Assembly: GCA_946616295.1 (NCBI GenBank)
Contig: CAMOIU010000001.1
Coordinates: 17,748 to 81,747 of the forward strand
Length of the DNA: 64,000 nt
Origin: an uncultured Lachnospiraceae bacterium
Lineage (GTDB): Bacteria; Bacillota; Clostridia; Lachnospirales; Lachnospiraceae
Reading direction: 5' to 3'
The notes beneath the pieces were generated by a model. That model worked only from the letters and a program-made list of their open reading frames with translations. It searched no databases and was not told the DNA's origin. How positions within the stretch are numbered: position 1 is the stretch's first letter; each line of letters begins with the position of its first letter. Shown here piece by piece: positions 6,479-37,309 of this stretch. The translations under genes and the position numbers were made by a program.

Positions 6479-7624
6479 ATGGATTATATCGTAAATACAC
6501 TGGATAACCTATTGCACCAGACCGCCTTTCTGAGTCTGACTCCCGGGAACTACCTGATGATCGCCGTTGCGTGCATCTTCCTGTATCTTGCGATCGCGCA
6601 TGATTTCGAGCCCCTGCTGCTCGTCCCGATCGCATTCGGCATGCTGCTCGTCAACATTTATCCCGATATCATGGCGGCTCCCACGGAGACCTCGGCCGGC
6701 GGACTGCTGCACTATTTCTTCCAGCTGGATGAGTGGGCCATTCTGCCCTCACTGATCTTCATGGGCGTGGGTGCCATGACGGACTTCGGTCCGCTGATCG
6801 CCAATCCCATGAGCTTCCTGCTGGGAGCGGCCGCACAGTTCGGTATCTTTGCCGCCTACTTCGGAGCTATCGCTCTGGGCTTCAACGGCAAGGCCGCGGC
6901 GGCGATCTCCATCATCGGCGGTGCTGACGGCCCCACCTCCATCTTCCTCTGCTCCAAGCTGGGACAGACGGAGCTGCTGGGACCCATCGCGGTGGCGGCG
7001 TACTCCTATATGTCGCTGGTCCCGATCATCCAGCCCCCGATCATGAAGCTGTTCACCACAGATAAAGAGCGCAGGATCAAGATGGAACAGCTCCGTCCGG
7101 TGTCGCGTCTGGAGAGGATCCTCTTCCCCATCGTCGTGACCATCGTGGTCTGCATGATCCTGCCCACCACAGCGCCCCTGGTCGGCATGCTGATGCTGGG
7201 CAACCTCTTCCGTGAGTGCGGCGTCGTGAGACAGCTGACAGAGACAGCTTCCAACGCAATGATGTACATCGTGGTCATCCTGCTGGGCACGTCCGTCGGC
7301 GCGACGACCAGCGCGGAGGCCTTCCTGAATGTCACCACCCTCAAGATCGTGGCCCTGGGCCTGATCGCGTTCGCATTCGGAACCCTGGCGGGCGTCCTGT
7401 TCGGCAAGCTCATGTGCGTGGCCACCGGCGGCAAGATCAATCCGCTGATCGGCAGCGCGGGCGTTTCGGCCGTTCCCATGGCGGCGCGCGTCTCCCAGAA
7501 GGTGGGTGCGGAGTATGATCCCACCAACTTCCTGCTGATGCATGCCATGGGCCCGAACGTGGCCGGCGTTATCGGCACGGCAGTCGCGGCCGGCGTGTTT
7601 ATGGCGGTGTTTGGAATTGTATAA
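6479..7624 (+). CDS. Na+-translocating decarboxylase beta subunit (OadB/GcdB/MmdB family)
   Basis: FEPLLLVPIAFG, GAMTDFGPL, IIGGADGPTSIF, AYSYMSLVPIIQPP, NPLIGSAGVSAVPMAAR, MGPNVAGVIG motifs; strongly hydrophobic. Confidence 0.95.
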   Translation: MDYIVNTLDNLLHQTAFLSLTPGNYLMIAVACIFLYLAIAHDFEPLLLVPIAFGMLLVNIYPDIMAAPTETSAGGLLHYFFQLDEWAILPSLIFMGVGAMTDFGPLIANPMSFLLGAAAQFGIFAAYFGAIALGFNGKAAAAISIIGGADGPTSIFLCSKLGQTELLGPIAVAAYSYMSLVPIIQPPIMKLFTTDKERRIKMEQLRPVSRLERILFPIVVTIVVCMILPTTAPLVGMLMLGNLFRECGVVRQLTETASNAMMYIVVILLGTSVGATTSAEAFLNVTTLKIVALGLIAFAFGTLAGVLFGKLMCVATGGKINPLIGSAGVSAVPMAARVSQKVGAEYDPTNFLLMHAMGPNVAGVIGTAVAAGVFMAVFGIV

Positions 7625-9852: not shown

Positions 9853-10713
9853 ATGAAAATCGATCTCAAGAAGGACATCAAAGTCATTTGTATCATCATC
9901 CTGTGCGCGCTGGGCATGGCGCTCAACATCAAGACCTTTGTGCGGACAGGCGGCCTGTACCCGGGCGGCGCCACGGGGCTGTCGATCCTCCTGCAGAGGA
10001 TCGCGGAGCGGTTCTGGGGCGTGGAGATCCCCTATTCCGTCGTGAATATACTGATGAATACAGTGCCCGTCTACATCGGCTTCCGCTATATCGGGAAGAA
10101 GTTCACCCTCTACTCCTGCCTGATGATCCTGCTGACGGGCCTTTTCACAGACCTGATCCCGGCTCACGTCATCACCCAGGATATCCTTCTGATCAGCGTG
10201 TTCGGAGGCATCATCAACGGCTTCGTGGTCAGCATGTGCCTTACATCGGGCGCGACGACCGGCGGAACCGATTTCATCGGCATCTACCTGTCGCAGAAGA
10301 AGGGCGTGGATTCCTTCTCCTTTGTACTGCTGATCAACGCCGTCATCCTGGGCGCTTCCGGTCTCCTGTTCGGCTGGGACAAGGCCCTCTACTCCATGAT
10401 CTTCCAGTATGTCTCCACCCAGGTCATGCACACCATGTACAGGATGTACCAGCAGGACACCCTCCTCATCGTGACCCGCTATCCCCAGGAGGTCGCCCAC
10501 GTGATCCATGAAGTGAGCAGCCATGGCGCGACCATCCTCCATGGCGAGGGCTCCCACGACCATCAAGAGAAGCAGATCGTCTACTCCGTGATCGCCAGCT
10601 CCCAGAGCCGCCAGGTCCTCGAGGCCGTGCGCCGGGTGGACGATCAGGCCTTCATCAACCACCTGAGGACCCAGGCGGTGATCGGCCACTTCAACCAGCC
10701 CGTGAGGGAATGA
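9853..10713 (+). CDS. YitT-family membrane protein
   Basis: GLYPGGATGLS, GATTGGTDFI, TM helices, and a C-terminal DUF2179-like GATILHGEG...DDQAFI region. Confidence 0.88.
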   Translation: MKIDLKKDIKVICIIILCALGMALNIKTFVRTGGLYPGGATGLSILLQRIAERFWGVEIPYSVVNILMNTVPVYIGFRYIGKKFTLYSCLMILLTGLFTDLIPAHVITQDILLISVFGGIINGFVVSMCLTSGATTGGTDFIGIYLSQKKGVDSFSFVLLINAVILGASGLLFGWDKALYSMIFQYVSTQVMHTMYRMYQQDTLLIVTRYPQEVAHVIHEVSSHGATILHGEGSHDHQEKQIVYSVIASSQSRQVLEAVRRVDDQAFINHLRTQAVIGHFNQPVRE

Positions 10714-10845
10714 CGGGCTCTCACAGGGCCTCACACAGGGGACGGTTCTCTGTGAGAGGCTGCGTTTGATTCTCACACAGGGGACGGTTCTCTGTCTCAC
10801 AGGGTCTCACACAGGGGACGGTTCTCTGTGTGAGGCTGCGTTTGA
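10714..10845 (+). repeat. Cluster of three REP-like palindromes (CACAGGGGACGGTTCTCTGTG)
   Basis: Copies at 10734-10754, 10776-10795 and 10810-10830, with repeated GAGGCTGCGTTTGAT flanks. Confidence 0.85.
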
Positions 10846-10863: not shown

Positions 10864-11233
10864 CCCGTTAAATCACCCCGCCCGGCCGCAGAAAACTTTC
10901 TGGGTTGAATGCCGGCCCATTAAGTCAACCCACTCAGCTGCAGGAAGCTTCCTGGGATGAAATCCGGTCCCGTTGATCACCCCGCCCGGCCGCAGGAAAC
11001 TTCCTGGGTTGAATGCCGGCCCATTAAGTCAACCCACTCAGCTGCAGGAGGCTTCTTGGGATGAATTCCGGTTCCGTTAAGTCACCCCGCCCGGCCGCAG
11101 AAATCTTCCTGGGTTGAATTCCAATCCCGCTAAGTCAACCCACTCAGCCGCGGGAGGCTTCAAGGGTTGAATCCCAGTCCGTTAAATCAACCCACCCGGC
11201 CGCAGACATTTTCCTGGGTTGAATATCAATCCC
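10864..11233. repeat. Tandem array of seven 52-53-bp palindromic units
   Basis: Units (TCA[A/C]CCC...GCAG...GGG[T/A]TGAA...) start at 10873, 10925, 10977, 11029, 11082, 11135 and 11187. Confidence 0.9.
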
Positions 11234-11293
11234 TACACTAGTACCTATAATTGGACACGCCAGGCAGACGATCAGCCTTGTGTGTTTATGCAA

Positions 11294-11445
11294 AAAAGGA
11301 CCGCACAGAGGACTGTCCCCCTGTGCGGCCCGCATATTATCTGGATTTTTTGCTGTTTTATCGTGTCATTCACACAGAGAACCGTCCCCTGTGAGACCCC
11401 TGTGAGACCCTGTGAGAGGCACCTGTGCGAGGCCCCTGTGTGGGC
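11294..11445 (-). repeat. About 103-bp composite REP element (two palindromes plus a conserved linker) followed by short CCCTGTGAGA repeats
   Basis: 11294-11396 is a near-identical reverse complement of 36575-36678. Confidence 0.85.
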
Positions 11446-12837
11446 TCAGAGAATACCCAGGGACATGAGGAGCAGGATGGCCAGAAGGACGGGGGCGATG
11501 TAGCGGATCATCACGTTGACGAGAGGGCGGCGGGCGTAGTGCTCGCCGTTTTTGGTGACCTCAGCGGTGATCTTGTCCGTGCCGAGGATCCAGCCGAAGA
11601 GGATGCAGGTGCCGATGGCGACAATGGGCATCAGGATGTAATTGCTGATGTAGTCGAGGATGTCGAGGACCTGTCCGATGCTGCCGTTGGGGAGGGGCAG
11701 CTCAAAGTAGAGCTTGTTGTAGCCCAGGCAGACGATGATGCCGATCACGAGGGCCAGGATGGTCTCCAGGATCGTGGCGTTGCTGCGCTTCATGTGGAAT
11801 TCATCGATGAAGCTGGAGACGACGGCCTCCATGACGGACATGGCGCTGGTGATGGCCGCGAAGAGGACCATGGCAAAAAAGAAGGCGCCGATGACGTTGC
11901 CGATGGGGCCCATGGCCAGGAAGACCTTGGGGAGGGAAACGAACATCAGGGAAGGGCCGGTGGACATGCCCTCCATGCCCATGAAGACATAGACGGCGGG
12001 GATGATCATGACACCGGCGAGGAAGGCGACCAGGGTATCGAAGATCTCGATGCGGGAGACCGACTGCGCGAGGTTGGCGTCATCCGGCACATAGGAGCCG
12101 TAGGCGATCAGGATGCCCATGGCGACGCTGAGACTGTAGAAGAGCTGTCCCAGGGCGTCCATGACGATGGTGAAGAATTTGTGTAAGGTGATACCCTCCA
12201 GGCTGGGGATCAGCAGCACGCGCAGGCCGTCCAGGCCCGTCACGGTGTTGCCTGCCGGGTCAGTGCTGCGGACCGTCAGGGAGAAGATGGCGATGCCGAT
12301 GACCAGGATCAGGAGGATGGGCATCAGGATCCGGGAGGAGCGTTCGATGCCGCCTTCCACACCCATGAAGATGACCACGGCACAGGCGCCGAGGAAGAGG
12401 ATCAGGTAGACGATGGGCTCCACAGGACTGGTAATAAAGCCCGTGAAGAAACCGTCCTGGGCCGCCTCCGCCCCGTGACCGGTGGCGTAGACCACGAAGT
12501 ATTTGAGGACCCAGCCGCCGATGGCGCTGTAGTAGGGCATGATCATGAAGGGCACCACACAGCCGAGGACGCCCAGCCAGCCCCAGCCTTTCCGCAGCTG
12601 CTTATAGGCCGAGAGGGGGCTCTTTTTCGTCATACGGCCGACGCTGGTCTCTGTGATCATCAGCGAGAAGCCGAAGGTCAGTGCCAGGATCAGGTAGATG
12701 ACCAGAAAGAGTCCGCCGCCGTCGCGCGCCGCGAGATAGGGAAAACGCCAGATGTTGCCGAGGCCGACAGCGCTGCCTGCCGCCGCCAGCACGAAACCGA
12801 GAGACCCTGCGAAGGAGCCCCGCTTCTGATTATTCAT
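11446..12837 (-). CDS. Sodium-dependent transporter, NSS/SNF family
   Basis: GSAVGLGNIWRFPY, GGGLFL, QLFYSLS, GPSLMFVSLP motifs; likely start ATG 12837 after AAAGGA. Confidence 0.93.
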   Translation of the reverse strand: MNNQKRGSFAGSLGFVLAAAGSAVGLGNIWRFPYLAARDGGGLFLVIYLILALTFGFSLMITETSVGRMTKKSPLSAYKQLRKGWGWLGVLGCVVPFMIMPYYSAIGGWVLKYFVVYATGHGAEAAQDGFFTGFITSPVEPIVYLILFLGACAVVIFMGVEGGIERSSRILMPILLILVIGIAIFSLTVRSTDPAGNTVTGLDGLRVLLIPSLEGITLHKFFTIVMDALGQLFYSLSVAMGILIAYGSYVPDDANLAQSVSRIEIFDTLVAFLAGVMIIPAVYVFMGMEGMSTGPSLMFVSLPKVFLAMGPIGNVIGAFFFAMVLFAAITSAMSVMEAVVSSFIDEFHMKRSNATILETILALVIGIIVCLGYNKLYFELPLPNGSIGQVLDILDYISNYILMPIVAIGTCILFGWILGTDKITAEVTKNGEHYARRPLVNVMIRYIAPVLLAILLLMSLGIL

Positions 12838-12923
12838 GGGTATGGTAGTCCTTTCCGGACCGCGAGAGAGACGGTTTACCGCGCGGTTTTTTGAATATAA
12901 ACGCATGACAGCATAGTAAACCG

Positions 12924-12944
12924 CGCAGAGAACCGTCCCCTGCG
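12924..12944 (-). repeat. Single REP-like palindrome
   Basis: CGCAGAGAACCGTCCCCTGCG. Confidence 0.8.
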
Positions 12945-13024
12945 CGGGCTGTGGTCTGAACAATACAGCATATTAGCGCATTTTACAGATTTCGGCAAGC
13001 GTGAACATAAGGGCTCAGGCTTGT

Positions 13025-16781: not shown

Positions 16782-18209
16782 ATGGCAATGTTATCTGCAA
16801 CAACAGAAGGCGGACGTGTGGAAGGTGTGCGAGCTAATTTCCCCTTCTACACGATCTTCAAAGGCATTCCTTTCATGGCGCCGCCCGTGGGAGAGAACCG
16901 CTGGAAAGAACCACAGCCTGTTCAGCCCTGGGAAGGAGTTCTGCGGTGTGACCGTTTCGCACCGACCTGTATGCAGCCTCCGTATGCCTCCGAGGGGGGC
17001 CTCATCGCCAATGAATTCATGGGCGTACAGATGCCCATGGACGAAGACTGCATGTACCTGAATATCTGGACGCCTGCTGAATCTGAAGAGGAGAAGCTTC
17101 CGGTCGCCGTCTATTTTCACGGAGGAGCTTATACTACCGGACTCAGTTACCTGAACTGCTTCGACGGCGAGGGCTTCAACAAGCGGGGGATCATCTTCGT
17201 GACCATCCCTTACAGGCTGAATATCTTTGGCTTCCTGGCGCATCCGCTGCTGACGGAGGAATCCGAACATAAGGCATCGGGCAATTACGCCTACCTGGAT
17301 CTGATCGCCGGTCTCAAATGGGTCAGGAGAAACATTCGCAGTTTCGGCGGAGATCCTGAGAATGTTACGATCTTCGGACAGTCTGCCGGCGCGGGCTGTG
17401 TGCGGGCAATGTGCACATCGCCGCTCGCTGACGGTCTGTTCCGCAGGGCGATCATTCAGTCAATAGGTGTTCTGGACCACAAACCTTTCACGGTATGGGG
17501 CAAGGACCTGAGCACTGCCGAGCAGCTGGGCAGAGATTTCTGGAACTACTGCGGATATACATCCGTCGAAGAGGCCAGGCAGGCTTCCGCGCAGGAACTC
17601 CTGGATCGGTTCATGGCGTTCGGCAGGGAGAAAAGATACGAAACGGACGACGAGCAGTATGCGGGCGGATACCTGCGCTTCGGCCCTGTGGAGCGCGACG
17701 GCTACTTCTATCCGGAGATCTCTGCGGATGCCATTCGGAGGGGCCATCACAAAGAGATCACCTATGTGATAGGGTCGACGGCTAATGAATATCCCTACAT
17801 GACACCCTGCAATATTGCTTTTGCGGAGAATGAGATCTGTCTGGGCAGGAAACCTGCCTATGTCTATTATTTCCAGTATGTTCCGCCTGGTGCGGAGGAG
17901 GAAGGCGCACACCATTCCGTGGAGCACCATTATGTCTTTCAGACACTGTTTCGCTCGCAGAGACCTTATGGAGGGTTTGACTTTGAGCTCTCCAATGAGA
18001 TGGCGGACAGGTGGGCTGCATTCTTTAAGACCGGCGACCCGAATTGTCCGGAGAAGCCTTATGCACAGTGGCGACCGTATTCCAAAGAGGACAGAGAGGT
18101 CCTCGGCATCACAAGAAAAGGCTGCCATATGATGTTCTGCCCGATGTCGCCGGAAAGAGAAAAGCGGATCCGGGAAGAACTGGAAAGGGCGGTAAATGAA
18201 GTAAAATGA
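16782..18209 (+). CDS. Type-B carboxylesterase
   Basis: FKGIPF, EDCMYLNIWTP, FHGGAY, YRLNIFGFL, GGDPENVTIFGQSAG (catalytic Ser), GSTANE, AHHSVE; no signal peptide. Confidence 0.9.
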   Translation: MAMLSATTEGGRVEGVRANFPFYTIFKGIPFMAPPVGENRWKEPQPVQPWEGVLRCDRFAPTCMQPPYASEGGLIANEFMGVQMPMDEDCMYLNIWTPAESEEEKLPVAVYFHGGAYTTGLSYLNCFDGEGFNKRGIIFVTIPYRLNIFGFLAHPLLTEESEHKASGNYAYLDLIAGLKWVRRNIRSFGGDPENVTIFGQSAGAGCVRAMCTSPLADGLFRRAIIQSIGVLDHKPFTVWGKDLSTAEQLGRDFWNYCGYTSVEEARQASAQELLDRFMAFGREKRYETDDEQYAGGYLRFGPVERDGYFYPEISADAIRRGHHKEITYVIGSTANEYPYMTPCNIAFAENEICLGRKPAYVYYFQYVPPGAEEEGAHHSVEHHYVFQTLFRSQRPYGGFDFELSNEMADRWAAFFKTGDPNCPEKPYAQWRPYSKEDREVLGITRKGCHMMFCPMSPEREKRIREELERAVNEVK

Positions 18210-36574: not shown

Positions 36575-36678
36575 TCTCACAGGGGACGGTTCTCTGTGTG
36601 AATGAGGGGATAAAACAGCAAAAAAAAACAGATAATATGCGGGCCGTACAGGGGGACAGTCCTCTGTGCGGTCCTTTT
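36575..36678 (+). repeat. About 103-bp composite REP element (second copy)
   Basis: Near-identical reverse complement of 11294-11396. Confidence 0.85.
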
Positions 36679-36817
36679 ACATATACAGGCCTCTCTGCAT
36701 CTGTTCGATCTACGGATCACTTCGCGGGGATACACATAGACCTGTTCATGTAAACTCGCGCAGCACGGTCTGTGCCCATGTGTGTGTGGCGATGTGATAC
36801 TCAAGTCCCGCGGGAGG

Positions 36818-37068
36818 TCACCCCGCCCGTCTGCAGGAAGCCTTCTGGGATGAATGCTAGTCCAGTCAAGTCACCCCGCCTGACCGCAGGAAGCCTTCTG
36901 GGATGAATGCTAGTCCAGTCAAGTCACCCCGCCCGTCTGCAGGAAGCCTTCTGGGATGAATGCTAGTCCAGTCAAGTCACCCCGCCTGACCGCAGGAAGC
37001 TTCCCGGGTTGAATTTCAATCCCGTTAAGTCAACCCACGCAGCGGTAGAAATCCTTCTGGGATGAAGT
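36818..37068. repeat. Tandem array of five 53-bp palindromic units (same family as 10864-11233)
   Basis: Units start at 36818, 36871, 36924, 36977 and 37030. Confidence 0.92.
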
Positions 37069-37161
37069 CTTTCCTTGTGTTCAGTCAACCTGGACCTGAG
37101 TCATGCCCCCCATTTCCAACCCGGGCCGCGCAGCGTGCCTTTTTTGTGATGGCAGACCTCT

Positions 37162-37197
37162 CACAGGGAACCGTCCCCTGTGAGAGCCCCCTGTGAG
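37162..37197 (-). repeat. REP-like palindrome with a CCCTGTGAGA echo
   Basis: CACAGGGAACCGTCCCCTGTGAGAGCCCCCTGTGAG. Confidence 0.8.
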
Positions 37198-37309
37198 AGC
37201 CTCCGCTTTTTGTTTTTGTAAAAAAAGATGCACAGGAACGCGTCACAGTGGTATAATATCGTTTGATATTTTTACAGCGCCCGCAAGTAGGTGTGGAAGG
37301 GAGCAGAAC

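Follow-up and report, generated by a model that had tools for sequence, protein, structure and literature searches.

Background

What kind of element is a short palindromic sequence that recurs head to tail, at a nearly constant period, in the intergenic DNA of a gut bacterium, and what holds its period constant? The question is raised by a 64-kb stretch of the genome of an uncultured Lachnospiraceae bacterium (positions 17,748 to 81,747 of contig CAMOIU010000001.1, assembly GCA_946616295.1; hereafter the window), in which direct reading of the sequence reveals seven head-to-tail units at positions 10864-11233 (array 1), while five further units of the same family form a second array downstream (array 2, Table 1). 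Interspersed palindromic repeats, such as the repetitive extragenic palindromic (REP) sequences, the bacterial interspersed mosaic elements (BIMEs) and the BOX elements, have been known for forty years, and the present case bears on why some of them form strictly ordered tandem arrays. A sequence-only reading of array 1 had described its spacing, its two alternating unit types, its recurrence as array 2 and its position between convergent genes, had found in it neither a CRISPR array nor a named repeat family, and had proposed that it serves as a centromere- or nucleoid-organiser-like protein-loading array or, alternatively, as a repeated RNA hairpin cassette.

Our analysis bears out this description, including the helical phasing, but makes both proposed roles unlikely. 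The arrays are most likely a lineage-restricted family of non-coding interspersed repeats of the REP-cluster, BIME or BOX kind. More specifically, with a probability of roughly 0.55, we regard them as selfish, modular repeats whose invariant inverted heptamers are read by a putative protein.

A unit defined by two inverted heptamers and two fixed distances

The right arms of array 1, which read GGGNTGA, start at 10902, 10954, 11006, 11058, 11111, 11164 and 11216, reproducing the spacings of 52, 52, 52, 53, 53 and 52 bp reported earlier. Tandem Repeats Finder (TRF) delimits a period of 52 bp at 10864-11224 (score 372, 6.9 copies) and scores a period of 104 bp higher (517, with 87% matches). Adjacent units are 67-73% identical and alternate ones 79-96%, so that types A and B do alternate and form a higher-order repeat of 104-105 bp. 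For array 2, delimited in this way at 36817-37066, TRF and the motif positions give a period of exactly 53 bp for each of the five units.

The source genome of the window (G000) is a 2.72-Mb draft of 113 contigs with 59.4% G+C; contig labels given below without a genome prefix refer to it. A hidden Markov model (HMM) built from the 12 units of the window retrieved 22 arrays with 127 units from this genome, and a register-aware extraction yielded 152 units in 21 arrays. More divergent arrays are present in C37, C41, C54 and C4. The total thus stands at no fewer than 24 arrays and at least 152 units, of which none overlaps a gene called by a codon-usage open reading frame caller. Numerous arrays are no more than a few hundred bases away from a contig end (C30, C36, C37, C77, C78, C93, C99, C11 and C53), so that these copy numbers are lower bounds, and C8 and C67 end opposite arrays of the sister-species genome G045. 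Arrays, REPs or a foldback repeat described below as element X probably break the short-read assembly. In practice, the arrays could moreover be mistaken for CRISPR arrays or RNA genes.

The consensus unit, CGTTAAGTCACCCCACTCGGCCGCAGGAAGCTTCCTGGGATGAATTCC, comprises a left arm (TCANCCC), a loop of 22 nt, a right arm (GGGNTGA) and a linker of 16-17 nt. Arm, loop and arm together measure 36 nt in 136 of the 152 units and 37 nt in the other 16, and the linker, among 125 cases, is 16 nt long in 62 and 17 nt in 60. From the start of TCANCCC to that of GGGNTGA there are 29 bp, and a further 23-24 bp lead to the next TCANCCC, which sums to 52-53 bp. Genome-wide, 114 of 131 unit-to-unit distances fall on this period (52 bp in 56 cases and 53 bp in 58, as against 54 bp in eight, 51 bp in two and 55 bp in one). 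The spacing is therefore not free, although free variation is what the sequence-only reading had named as fatal to its phasing argument, and the same holds in the three further arm classes introduced below. Information content per position reaches 1.69-1.72 bits in the arms, even with their free position 4 included, whereas the loop has 0.83 and the linker 0.55; in C41 and C54, only arms and spacing are shared with the main family. The arms are near-invariant, the sequence between them drifts, and the length of both intervals is maintained. Hence, the conserved part of the unit consists of two inverted heptamers held at two constant distances. The arms hold almost all the information of the unit, and they differ between arm classes.

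Modular anatomy of the arrays

The arrays are polar. Many open with the leader GTGATACTCATGGCCCACGGGAG, followed by two characteristic head units, H1 (loop GTCTGCCTGCCAGA..GCTTT) and H2 (loop ..CTGTGTACAGGGAGCTTCC), and at the far end many have a tail unit (..GTAGAAA..CTTCTGGGATGA) followed by a final TCAGTCAACC that resembles a left arm, after which similarity between loci ceases. With GGGGTGA at their beginning and TCAACC(T/C) at their end, they carry a terminal inverted repeat of 7 nt. They contain 2-12 units, of which H1, H2 and the tail unit are conserved across arrays, whereas the body units are homogenised inside one array and different between arrays. As head and tail units are common to different loci, whole arrays were copied from locus to locus; the likeness of body units within but not between arrays shows that they multiplied in place after copying, as did the A/B dimers of array 1. 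Array 1 itself is devoid of canonical head and tail units and retains only a degenerate leader.

Several arm classes on one geometry in a small clade

A strict two-unit TCANCCC pattern has 73 matches in G000 and none in 40 relatives. The same pattern encountered only chance singletons in 185,579 species genomes, none of them in a streptococcal genome, and in metagenome contigs; none of these singletons matches the unit HMM, and two of them, L012 and L015, were also read as chance. A BLAST search against plasmids and phages returned no match. When array 2 was compared by BLAST with 85 congeners, a single remnant emerged, in G045, a sister species whose array flanks are 87-96% identical to those of G000 (weighted identity 90%). 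At this orthologous locus (C78 in G000, contig C52 of G045), G045 retains 1.5 units of the TCANCCC family and the tail, and upstream of the remnant it has a different array of 52-53-bp period, with the arms TCGCTTT/AAAGCGA. This second class shows 54 junction matches in G045, and none beyond chance in the 84 other congeners; it has its own conserved multi-unit head, 64 of its 77 units have a 21-nt loop, and its period is 53 bp (36 cases) or 52 bp (16 cases).

A third species, G090, at about 83% DNA identity, has 220 matches to arrays with either GGCCTA/TAGGCC or GGCTTA/TAAGCC arms. The GGCTTA/TAAGCC class is also found in G000 itself (70 matches, at least nine arrays), where its start-to-start intervals are 23 bp in 41 cases and 29-30 bp in 45, and its period is 52 bp in 12 and 53 bp in 23. 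Among the congeners the GGCYTA class is confined to G000 and G090, and it is absent from 300 other genera sampled in the family, where it was the only class checked. None of the arm classes occurs in the other 83 species of the genus, including G091 and G048, of which 400 kb and 302 kb, respectively, were sampled and contained no such array. The arrays are consequently confined to G000, G045 and G090, a tiny clade of gut Lachnospiraceae.

From one arm class to another, both arms always change together: TCANCCC and TCGCTTT are set apart by four paired changes, GGCCTA and GGCTTA by a single one, and no mixed units are found in about 90 listed rows. Such mirrored changes are predicted both by a base-paired stem and by inverted half-sites for one protein. 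All four classes share a geometry of about 29 + 23.5 bp, 52.5 bp in total, with unrelated intervening sequences, which indicates that the spacing is constrained. The clade thereby constitutes a natural experiment, with at least four arm sequences on one geometry, two classes in one genome and sister species that differ, and separates what is selected (arm symmetry and spacing) from what is not (the sequence between). That the classes are limited to three species, differ between sisters and coexist fits element-specific or fast-evolving readers and a rapid turnover, rather than a conserved host function such as that of a centromere or nucleoid organiser. A conserved host protein would not tolerate the use of different arms by a sister species of about 90% DNA identity.

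Individual loci were also compared with relatives. Close homologues of the YitT protein of the window are annotated Lachnospiraceae or Blautia, and the orthologous spacer between the YitT and SNF genes of a relative with 84% identity in the YitT protein measures 245 bp and contains neither REP nor array. The regions upstream of ilvE in 29 congeners hold no array, but their synteny differs (in G091, nth lies between galK and ilvE). At the C10 locus there is a different insert.

Genomic context and orientation

As the sequence-only reading had noted, array 1 lies between convergent genes, namely those for a YitT-family protein (9853-10713, plus strand) and an SNF-family transporter (11446-12963, minus strand); array 2 is flanked by the co-directional galK and ilvE. 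Such convergent settings are enriched in the genome as a whole: of 17 arrays with both neighbours called, nine are in spacers of convergent genes, a setting that makes up 10.9% of intergenic regions overall (Fisher p = 2.7e-5, odds ratio 9.2). Arrays often adjoin REPs, and many are bracketed by the hairpin CACAGGGGACGGTTCTCTGTG. A comparison of neighbouring genes revealed no family that recurs beside the arrays, and no partition genes adjoin them.

An apparent orientation bias, in which 13 of 16 arrays have a same-strand gene upstream, was rejected, as convergent sites satisfy either orientation. The informative, co-directional sites hold five sense and two antisense arrays, and hence no orientation bias is demonstrable. 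Neither is there a replication-strand bias, the comparison of array strand with GC skew giving a non-significant 13:8.

Pairing and folding of the arms

RNAalifold, applied to 67 distinct units, recovered the arm stem only, with three pairs plus four around a mismatch (-4.9 kcal/mol, covariation term -0.15). At position 4 the arms fail to match in 127 of 152 units and form a Watson-Crick pair in 25, as compared to about 33 expected from base composition, and they show no covariation there; at position 8 the pairs are A-T (68), G-T (42), G-C (23) and A-C (10). In the TCGCTTT class of G045 the polymorphic arm position reads G-C in 54, A.C in 16, G.T in 6 and A-T in one case, again with no covariation, and with a wobble asymmetry opposite to that of the TCANCCC class. 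A hairpin formed across the junction, from a right arm and the next left arm, was tried and discarded, since position 4 is Watson-Crick in 26 of 125 junctions, just as within units. Array 1 is no more stably folded than shuffled sequence (plus strand, z = -0.2; minus strand, -0.95), and the mean z over 18 arrays is -1.7 in sense and -2.4 in antisense. This evidence argues against a strand-specific structured RNA and offers little support for selection on a stem; what the arms resemble is a conserved word of sequence.

A probable selfish interspersed repeat and its relation to known systems

Under the reading that we favour, the arms would be recognition sites of a putative protein, most likely an enzyme that copies or recombines the element, in a parallel to the action of the RAYT transposase on REPs. 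Each arm class may have its own reader, or a single reader may recognise the symmetry of the arm pair, and the arrays would have no essential host function. They accumulate where insertions are best tolerated, at convergent gene 3' ends and beside REPs, and their turnover, to judge from sister species with different arm classes, is fast. The arm classes offer a direct handle for finding the arm-reading protein.

A number of observations weigh against this reading: 1) No mobilising enzyme is linked to the array family. The single RAYT gene of G000, in C44 (L114 1111-1866, minus strand), encodes a protein of 251 aa that scores 88.3 bits with NF047646 (cut-off 80) and contains the Pfam domain Y1_Tnp, but CACAGGGGACGGTTCTCTGTG hairpins, and no 53-bp unit, border the gene on either side; likewise, the Y1 transposases of G045 are not flanked by the G045 arms. 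2) Beyond the 7-nt arms there are no terminal inverted repeats. 3) Neither a target-site duplication nor a clean empty site is definable in the flanks, the relatives being too divergent at the nucleotide level. 4) A selfish element has no obvious need for intervals that stay constant across four arm classes. 5) Two classes in one genome would require two readers or a structure-based recognition. The RAYT gene and its flanking hairpins constitute a REPtron in a Lachnospiraceae genome, and CACAGGGGACGGTTCTCTGTG, the REP family of this genome, displays G.U wobble pairing in one orientation only.

In Streptococcus pneumoniae and Streptococcus suis, BOX elements consist of a head module, tandem internal units in variable number, each about 45-53 bp long, and a tail module, are present in many intergenic copies, are over-represented between convergent genes, and differ in their module sets between related species (Croucher et al. 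2011, PMC3049150). All this is paralleled by the conserved H1, H2 and tail units, the variable unit number and the dispersal of whole elements observed here, and any mobilising enzyme is putative in both systems, though this likeness is one of architecture and no relation in sequence is to be expected. There are also differences: boxA pairs with boxC, boxB is devoid of invariant inverted heptamers at fixed spacing, and BOX is AT-rich as against the 59% G+C of this genome. Several arm classes on one geometry are a feature of the present arrays.

With REPs and BIME-2 elements the arrays share imperfect palindromic units of about 35 bp, regular spacing, tandem runs of up to about 12 at many extragenic loci, lineage-specific families and the presence of a RAYT in the genome. 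Ordered tandem REP arrays have been described at many loci in Pseudomonas fluorescens SBW25 (PMC3116915), albeit with a period of 184 bp instead of 52-53 bp, and REP clusters and BIME-2 are likewise regularly spaced and tandemly amplified (PMC3333891, PMC2817692). In size and location, too, the units conform to REPs, the arm-loop-arm segment measuring 36-37 nt and all copies lying outside called genes. However, BIMEs alternate the orientation of whole REPs, whereas the units studied here are all direct repeats in which only the 7-nt arms are inverted, alternating in orientation along the array. Furthermore, the palindrome of REPs bears at one of its ends a tetranucleotide tag, GTAG or CGTC (PMC3733652), and the consensus of the TCANCCC class contains none of GTAG, CTAC, CGTC and GACG; its sister classes read GTAAGCC and GTAGGCC. 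Given this lack of a tag and the RAYT flanked by another family, we do not place the arrays with the RAYT REPs and instead file them as a kind of interspersed palindromic repeat that differs from these. As for the REP or BIME match that the sequence-only reading had set against its own proposal, a resemblance in architecture is thus evident, and one in sequence is not.

MITEs (miniature transposable elements with inverted repeats) resemble the arrays in being non-coding, multi-copy and exclusively intergenic, and in the copying of whole elements between loci. They differ in that the arrays are not AT-rich, have only the 7-nt arms as terminal inverted repeats, have flanks in which no target-site duplication was seen, and correspond to no identified insertion sequence (IS) with matching ends.

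Alternative explanations

Of the alternatives, the one that survives best begins with the constant period of about five helical turns, which is real. It posits that a sequence-specific protein loads onto duplex DNA in a phased array that serves the host, in which proteins on one face of the helix would cooperate and might structure the DNA or control its supercoiling at gene ends. Equivalent arms are 52.5 bp, or 5.0 helical turns, apart, and gyrase, which binds BIME-2 elements (PMC6379681), could serve as a model. Such an array would explain invariant arms with free sequence between them, the fixed length of both intervals, and the retention of the 29 + 23.5-bp geometry in four classes with unrelated linkers. 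It also agrees with the absence of strand asymmetry (G.T exceeds A.C at position 8 here, and the reverse holds in G045), with the lack of bias relative to replication and the 5:2 split relative to transcription, with position 4, where the arms vary as independent half-sites would, and with the preference for convergent gene ends, where positive supercoils build up. We nevertheless consider it unlikely. The absence of the arrays from 83 of 85 congeners speaks against a general host need, and the arms differ at four of seven positions between sister species of about 90% identity and belong to two classes in one genome. Neighbouring arms are 2.76 and 2.24 turns apart, and therefore not on one face; other tandem hairpin families of G000 have periods of 61-62 and 71-73 bp; and no candidate protein was found, just as no gene family recurs beside the arrays. 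The centromere- or nucleoid-organiser-like version put forward by the sequence-only reading is not supported. Plasmid centromeres and iterons, such as parC of R1 and the iterons of theta replicons, are tandem, helix-phased protein-binding repeats with units of about 11-22 bp, and occur at one locus per replicon beside par or rep genes. The arrays, in contrast, are dispersed over at least 24 chromosomal loci with an enrichment at convergent gene ends, and have in the window YitT, SNF, galK and ilvE genes as neighbours. With so many loci and such a fast turnover, a centromere-like role does not fit.

A quite unlikely, though more radical, variant is a phased protein-DNA array of an unrecognised kind, in which interchangeable inverted heptamers at 29 + 23.5 bp would each be bound, class by class, by a fast-evolving, polymerising DNA-binding protein. 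The period would then be set by the geometry of a filament and not by descent, and the arrays might form part of a strain-specific system for chromosome marking, topology or defence against mobile elements.

Another possibility, which we hold to be improbable, is that the units act as hairpins in single-stranded DNA, in the manner of REPs or the ends of IS200/IS605 elements, and are cut and copied by a structure-specific HUH/Y1 enzyme, RAYT or other, with the arrays arising from alternative processing of intermediates. The invariably complementary differences between arm classes, the absence of mixed units, the presence of a RAYT and of its REPs beside many arrays, and the arms GTAGGCC and GTAAGCC of the G090 and GGCTTA classes, which recall the GTAG tag of REPs, would all be accommodated by it; an origin by RAYT processing has indeed been proposed for complex REP arrays (PMC3733652). 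On the other hand, the stems are weak (3 bp, a mismatch and 3-4 bp), their position 4 is mostly mismatched with no sign of covariation, and the RAYT is flanked by the other REP family only. Single-strand transposition would moreover predict something other than the observed 13:8 split between replication strands, and a hairpin does not require a linker of fixed length.

The RNA hairpin cassette of the sequence-only reading, whether transcribed as part of a 3' untranslated region or from its own promoter, and acting as a stabiliser, a terminator, a protein sponge or a ToxI-like antitoxin of a type III toxin-antitoxin system, appears very unlikely to us. The YitT gene precedes array 1 with no plus-strand terminator or promoter predicted between the two, folding of the arrays is somewhat more stable than that of shuffled sequence, A-U, G-U and G-C pairs would dominate position 8 of the stem, and pneumococcal BOX elements are co-transcribed (PMC3049150). 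Yet the antisense strand folds at least as well and array 1 by itself barely departs from shuffled sequence, the covariation term is -0.15, the asymmetry of G.U and A.C is reversed in G045, the preference for one orientation vanishes once convergent sites are set aside, and array 2 sits behind a predicted galK terminator. Unlike ToxI-like repeats, which precede a terminator and the gene of a toxin endoribonuclease, the arrays are flanked by housekeeping genes and by no recurrent toxin gene. No Rfam family reached its gathering score on the arrays, in agreement with the earlier judgement that they belong to no named repeat family, and within the window only a tRNA scored; at E<=10 there was still nothing on the arrays, the spurious miRNA matches being restricted to neighbouring REPs. 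The loops match nothing else in the G000 genome, and hence have no guide-like targets. The weak folding, the lack of strand asymmetry and of covariation within classes, and the absence of an orientation bias together make the RNA cassette unlikely.

Finally, a degenerate or orphan CRISPR-like array, with right arm, linker and left arm as a 31-nt 'repeat' and the loop as a 22-nt 'spacer', would have in its favour a strictly regular period, the alternation of a conserved segment with a less conserved one of fixed length, the inverted termini of the 'repeat' and arrays that run from right arm to left arm, i.e. from repeat to repeat, but it can be dismissed, in keeping with the sequence-only reading, given that the whole unit is repeated, that the 'spacers' are mutually related, shared by several loci in the same order and matched nowhere else in the genome, and that the 24 loci lie among housekeeping genes with no recurrent neighbour family, no dedicated search for cas genes having been made. 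To our knowledge, 22 nt is also shorter than any known CRISPR spacer.

Features of the window and other repeat families

The features of the window and the further array loci of G000 are collected in Table 1.

Table 1. Locations of arrays, flanking modules and other tandem families (positions without a contig label are those of the window)
Feature	Location	Strand	Remarks
Array 1, seven tandem units	10873..11233	+	TCANCCC left arm, 22 nt, GGGNTGA right arm, 16-17-nt linker
Degenerate leader of array 1, GATGATGTGAAGCTCGTGGACCCGTTAAA	10844..10872	+	likeness to head leader GTGATACTCATGGCCCACGGGAG judged by eye
Three REP hairpin copies (CACAGGGGACGGTTCTCTGTG)	10729..10836	+	separate family, directly upstream of array 1
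Inverted REP copy	11368..11396	-	downstream of array 1; 96% complementary to copy 10807-10833
Intrinsic-terminator-like hairpin and T-run	11298..11331	-	predicted; serves the convergent SNF transporter gene
Terminator-like hairpin after galK	36641..36674	+	predicted; upstream of array 2
Truncated element X copy	36711..36748	+	upstream of array 2; outside the array family
Head leader of array 2, GATGTGATACTCAAGTCCCGCGGGAG	36791..36817	+	
Array 2, five 53-bp units	36818..37068	+	last unit of the family tail type GGTAGAAATCCTTCTGGGATGA
Tail of array 2	37069..37090	+	ends in terminal left-arm-like TCAGTCAACC; inter-array similarity stops there
ilvE promoter-like site	37229-37257		predicted; downstream of array 2
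GGCTTAY/RTAAGCC arrays	C3:49683-50203, C13:19617-20052, C16:15249-15616, C23:2856-3357, C35:13804-14360, C56:12678-13133		G000
61-62-bp family	C22:34954-35818, C10:58685-59037, C54:673-1087, C19:31948-32369, C16:271-579		G000; 14 units at the C22 locus; about 12 more loci
71-73-bp families, first set	C18:13295-13776, C50:20161-20574 and 6576-6857, C48:12400-12819, C12:52836-53089, C1:101768-102058		G000
71-73-bp families, second set	C6:28200-28441, C49:8532-8782, C57:224-493		G000

The genome of G000 contains other tandem repeats as well. One dispersed tandem hairpin family has a period of 61-62 bp and nested arms, CGTTAT/ATAACG on the outside and GTGTGA/TCACAC on the inside; its pattern matches number 91 in G000, 47 in G045 and 28 in G090, with none in other congeners. 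Two more non-coding tandem families, with periods of 71-73 bp, occupy several loci each in G000. These periods are not whole numbers of helical turns, and whole-turn phasing would not hold generally if the families work alike. In contig C4 of G048 (L174 16394-16843), a genome free of 53-bp arrays, a non-coding tandem repeat has about five copies of 75 bp.

The foldback repeat element X (C9:38662-38924, L138) spans about 260 nt, is predicted to fold at -161 kcal/mol and has no Rfam match. About ten copies exist in G000, for example at C9:16206-16458, C36:29628-29886, C17:44454-44648 and C21:16509-16697, and it is found in G045 too. It often lies just upstream of array heads, and the array leader partly resembles it. 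A further copy of the REP hairpin CACAGGGGACGGTTCTCTGTG is situated in the window at 37158-37186. In addition, a terminator-like module, GGACCGCACAGAGGACTGTCCCCCTGTGCGGCCC followed by GCATATTATCTGGATTTTTTGC, is repeated near both arrays of the window (11290-11345, and an inverted copy at 36620-36680), and also adjoins arrays in C30, C67, C78 and C17. The intergenic DNA is a mosaic of several repeat modules.

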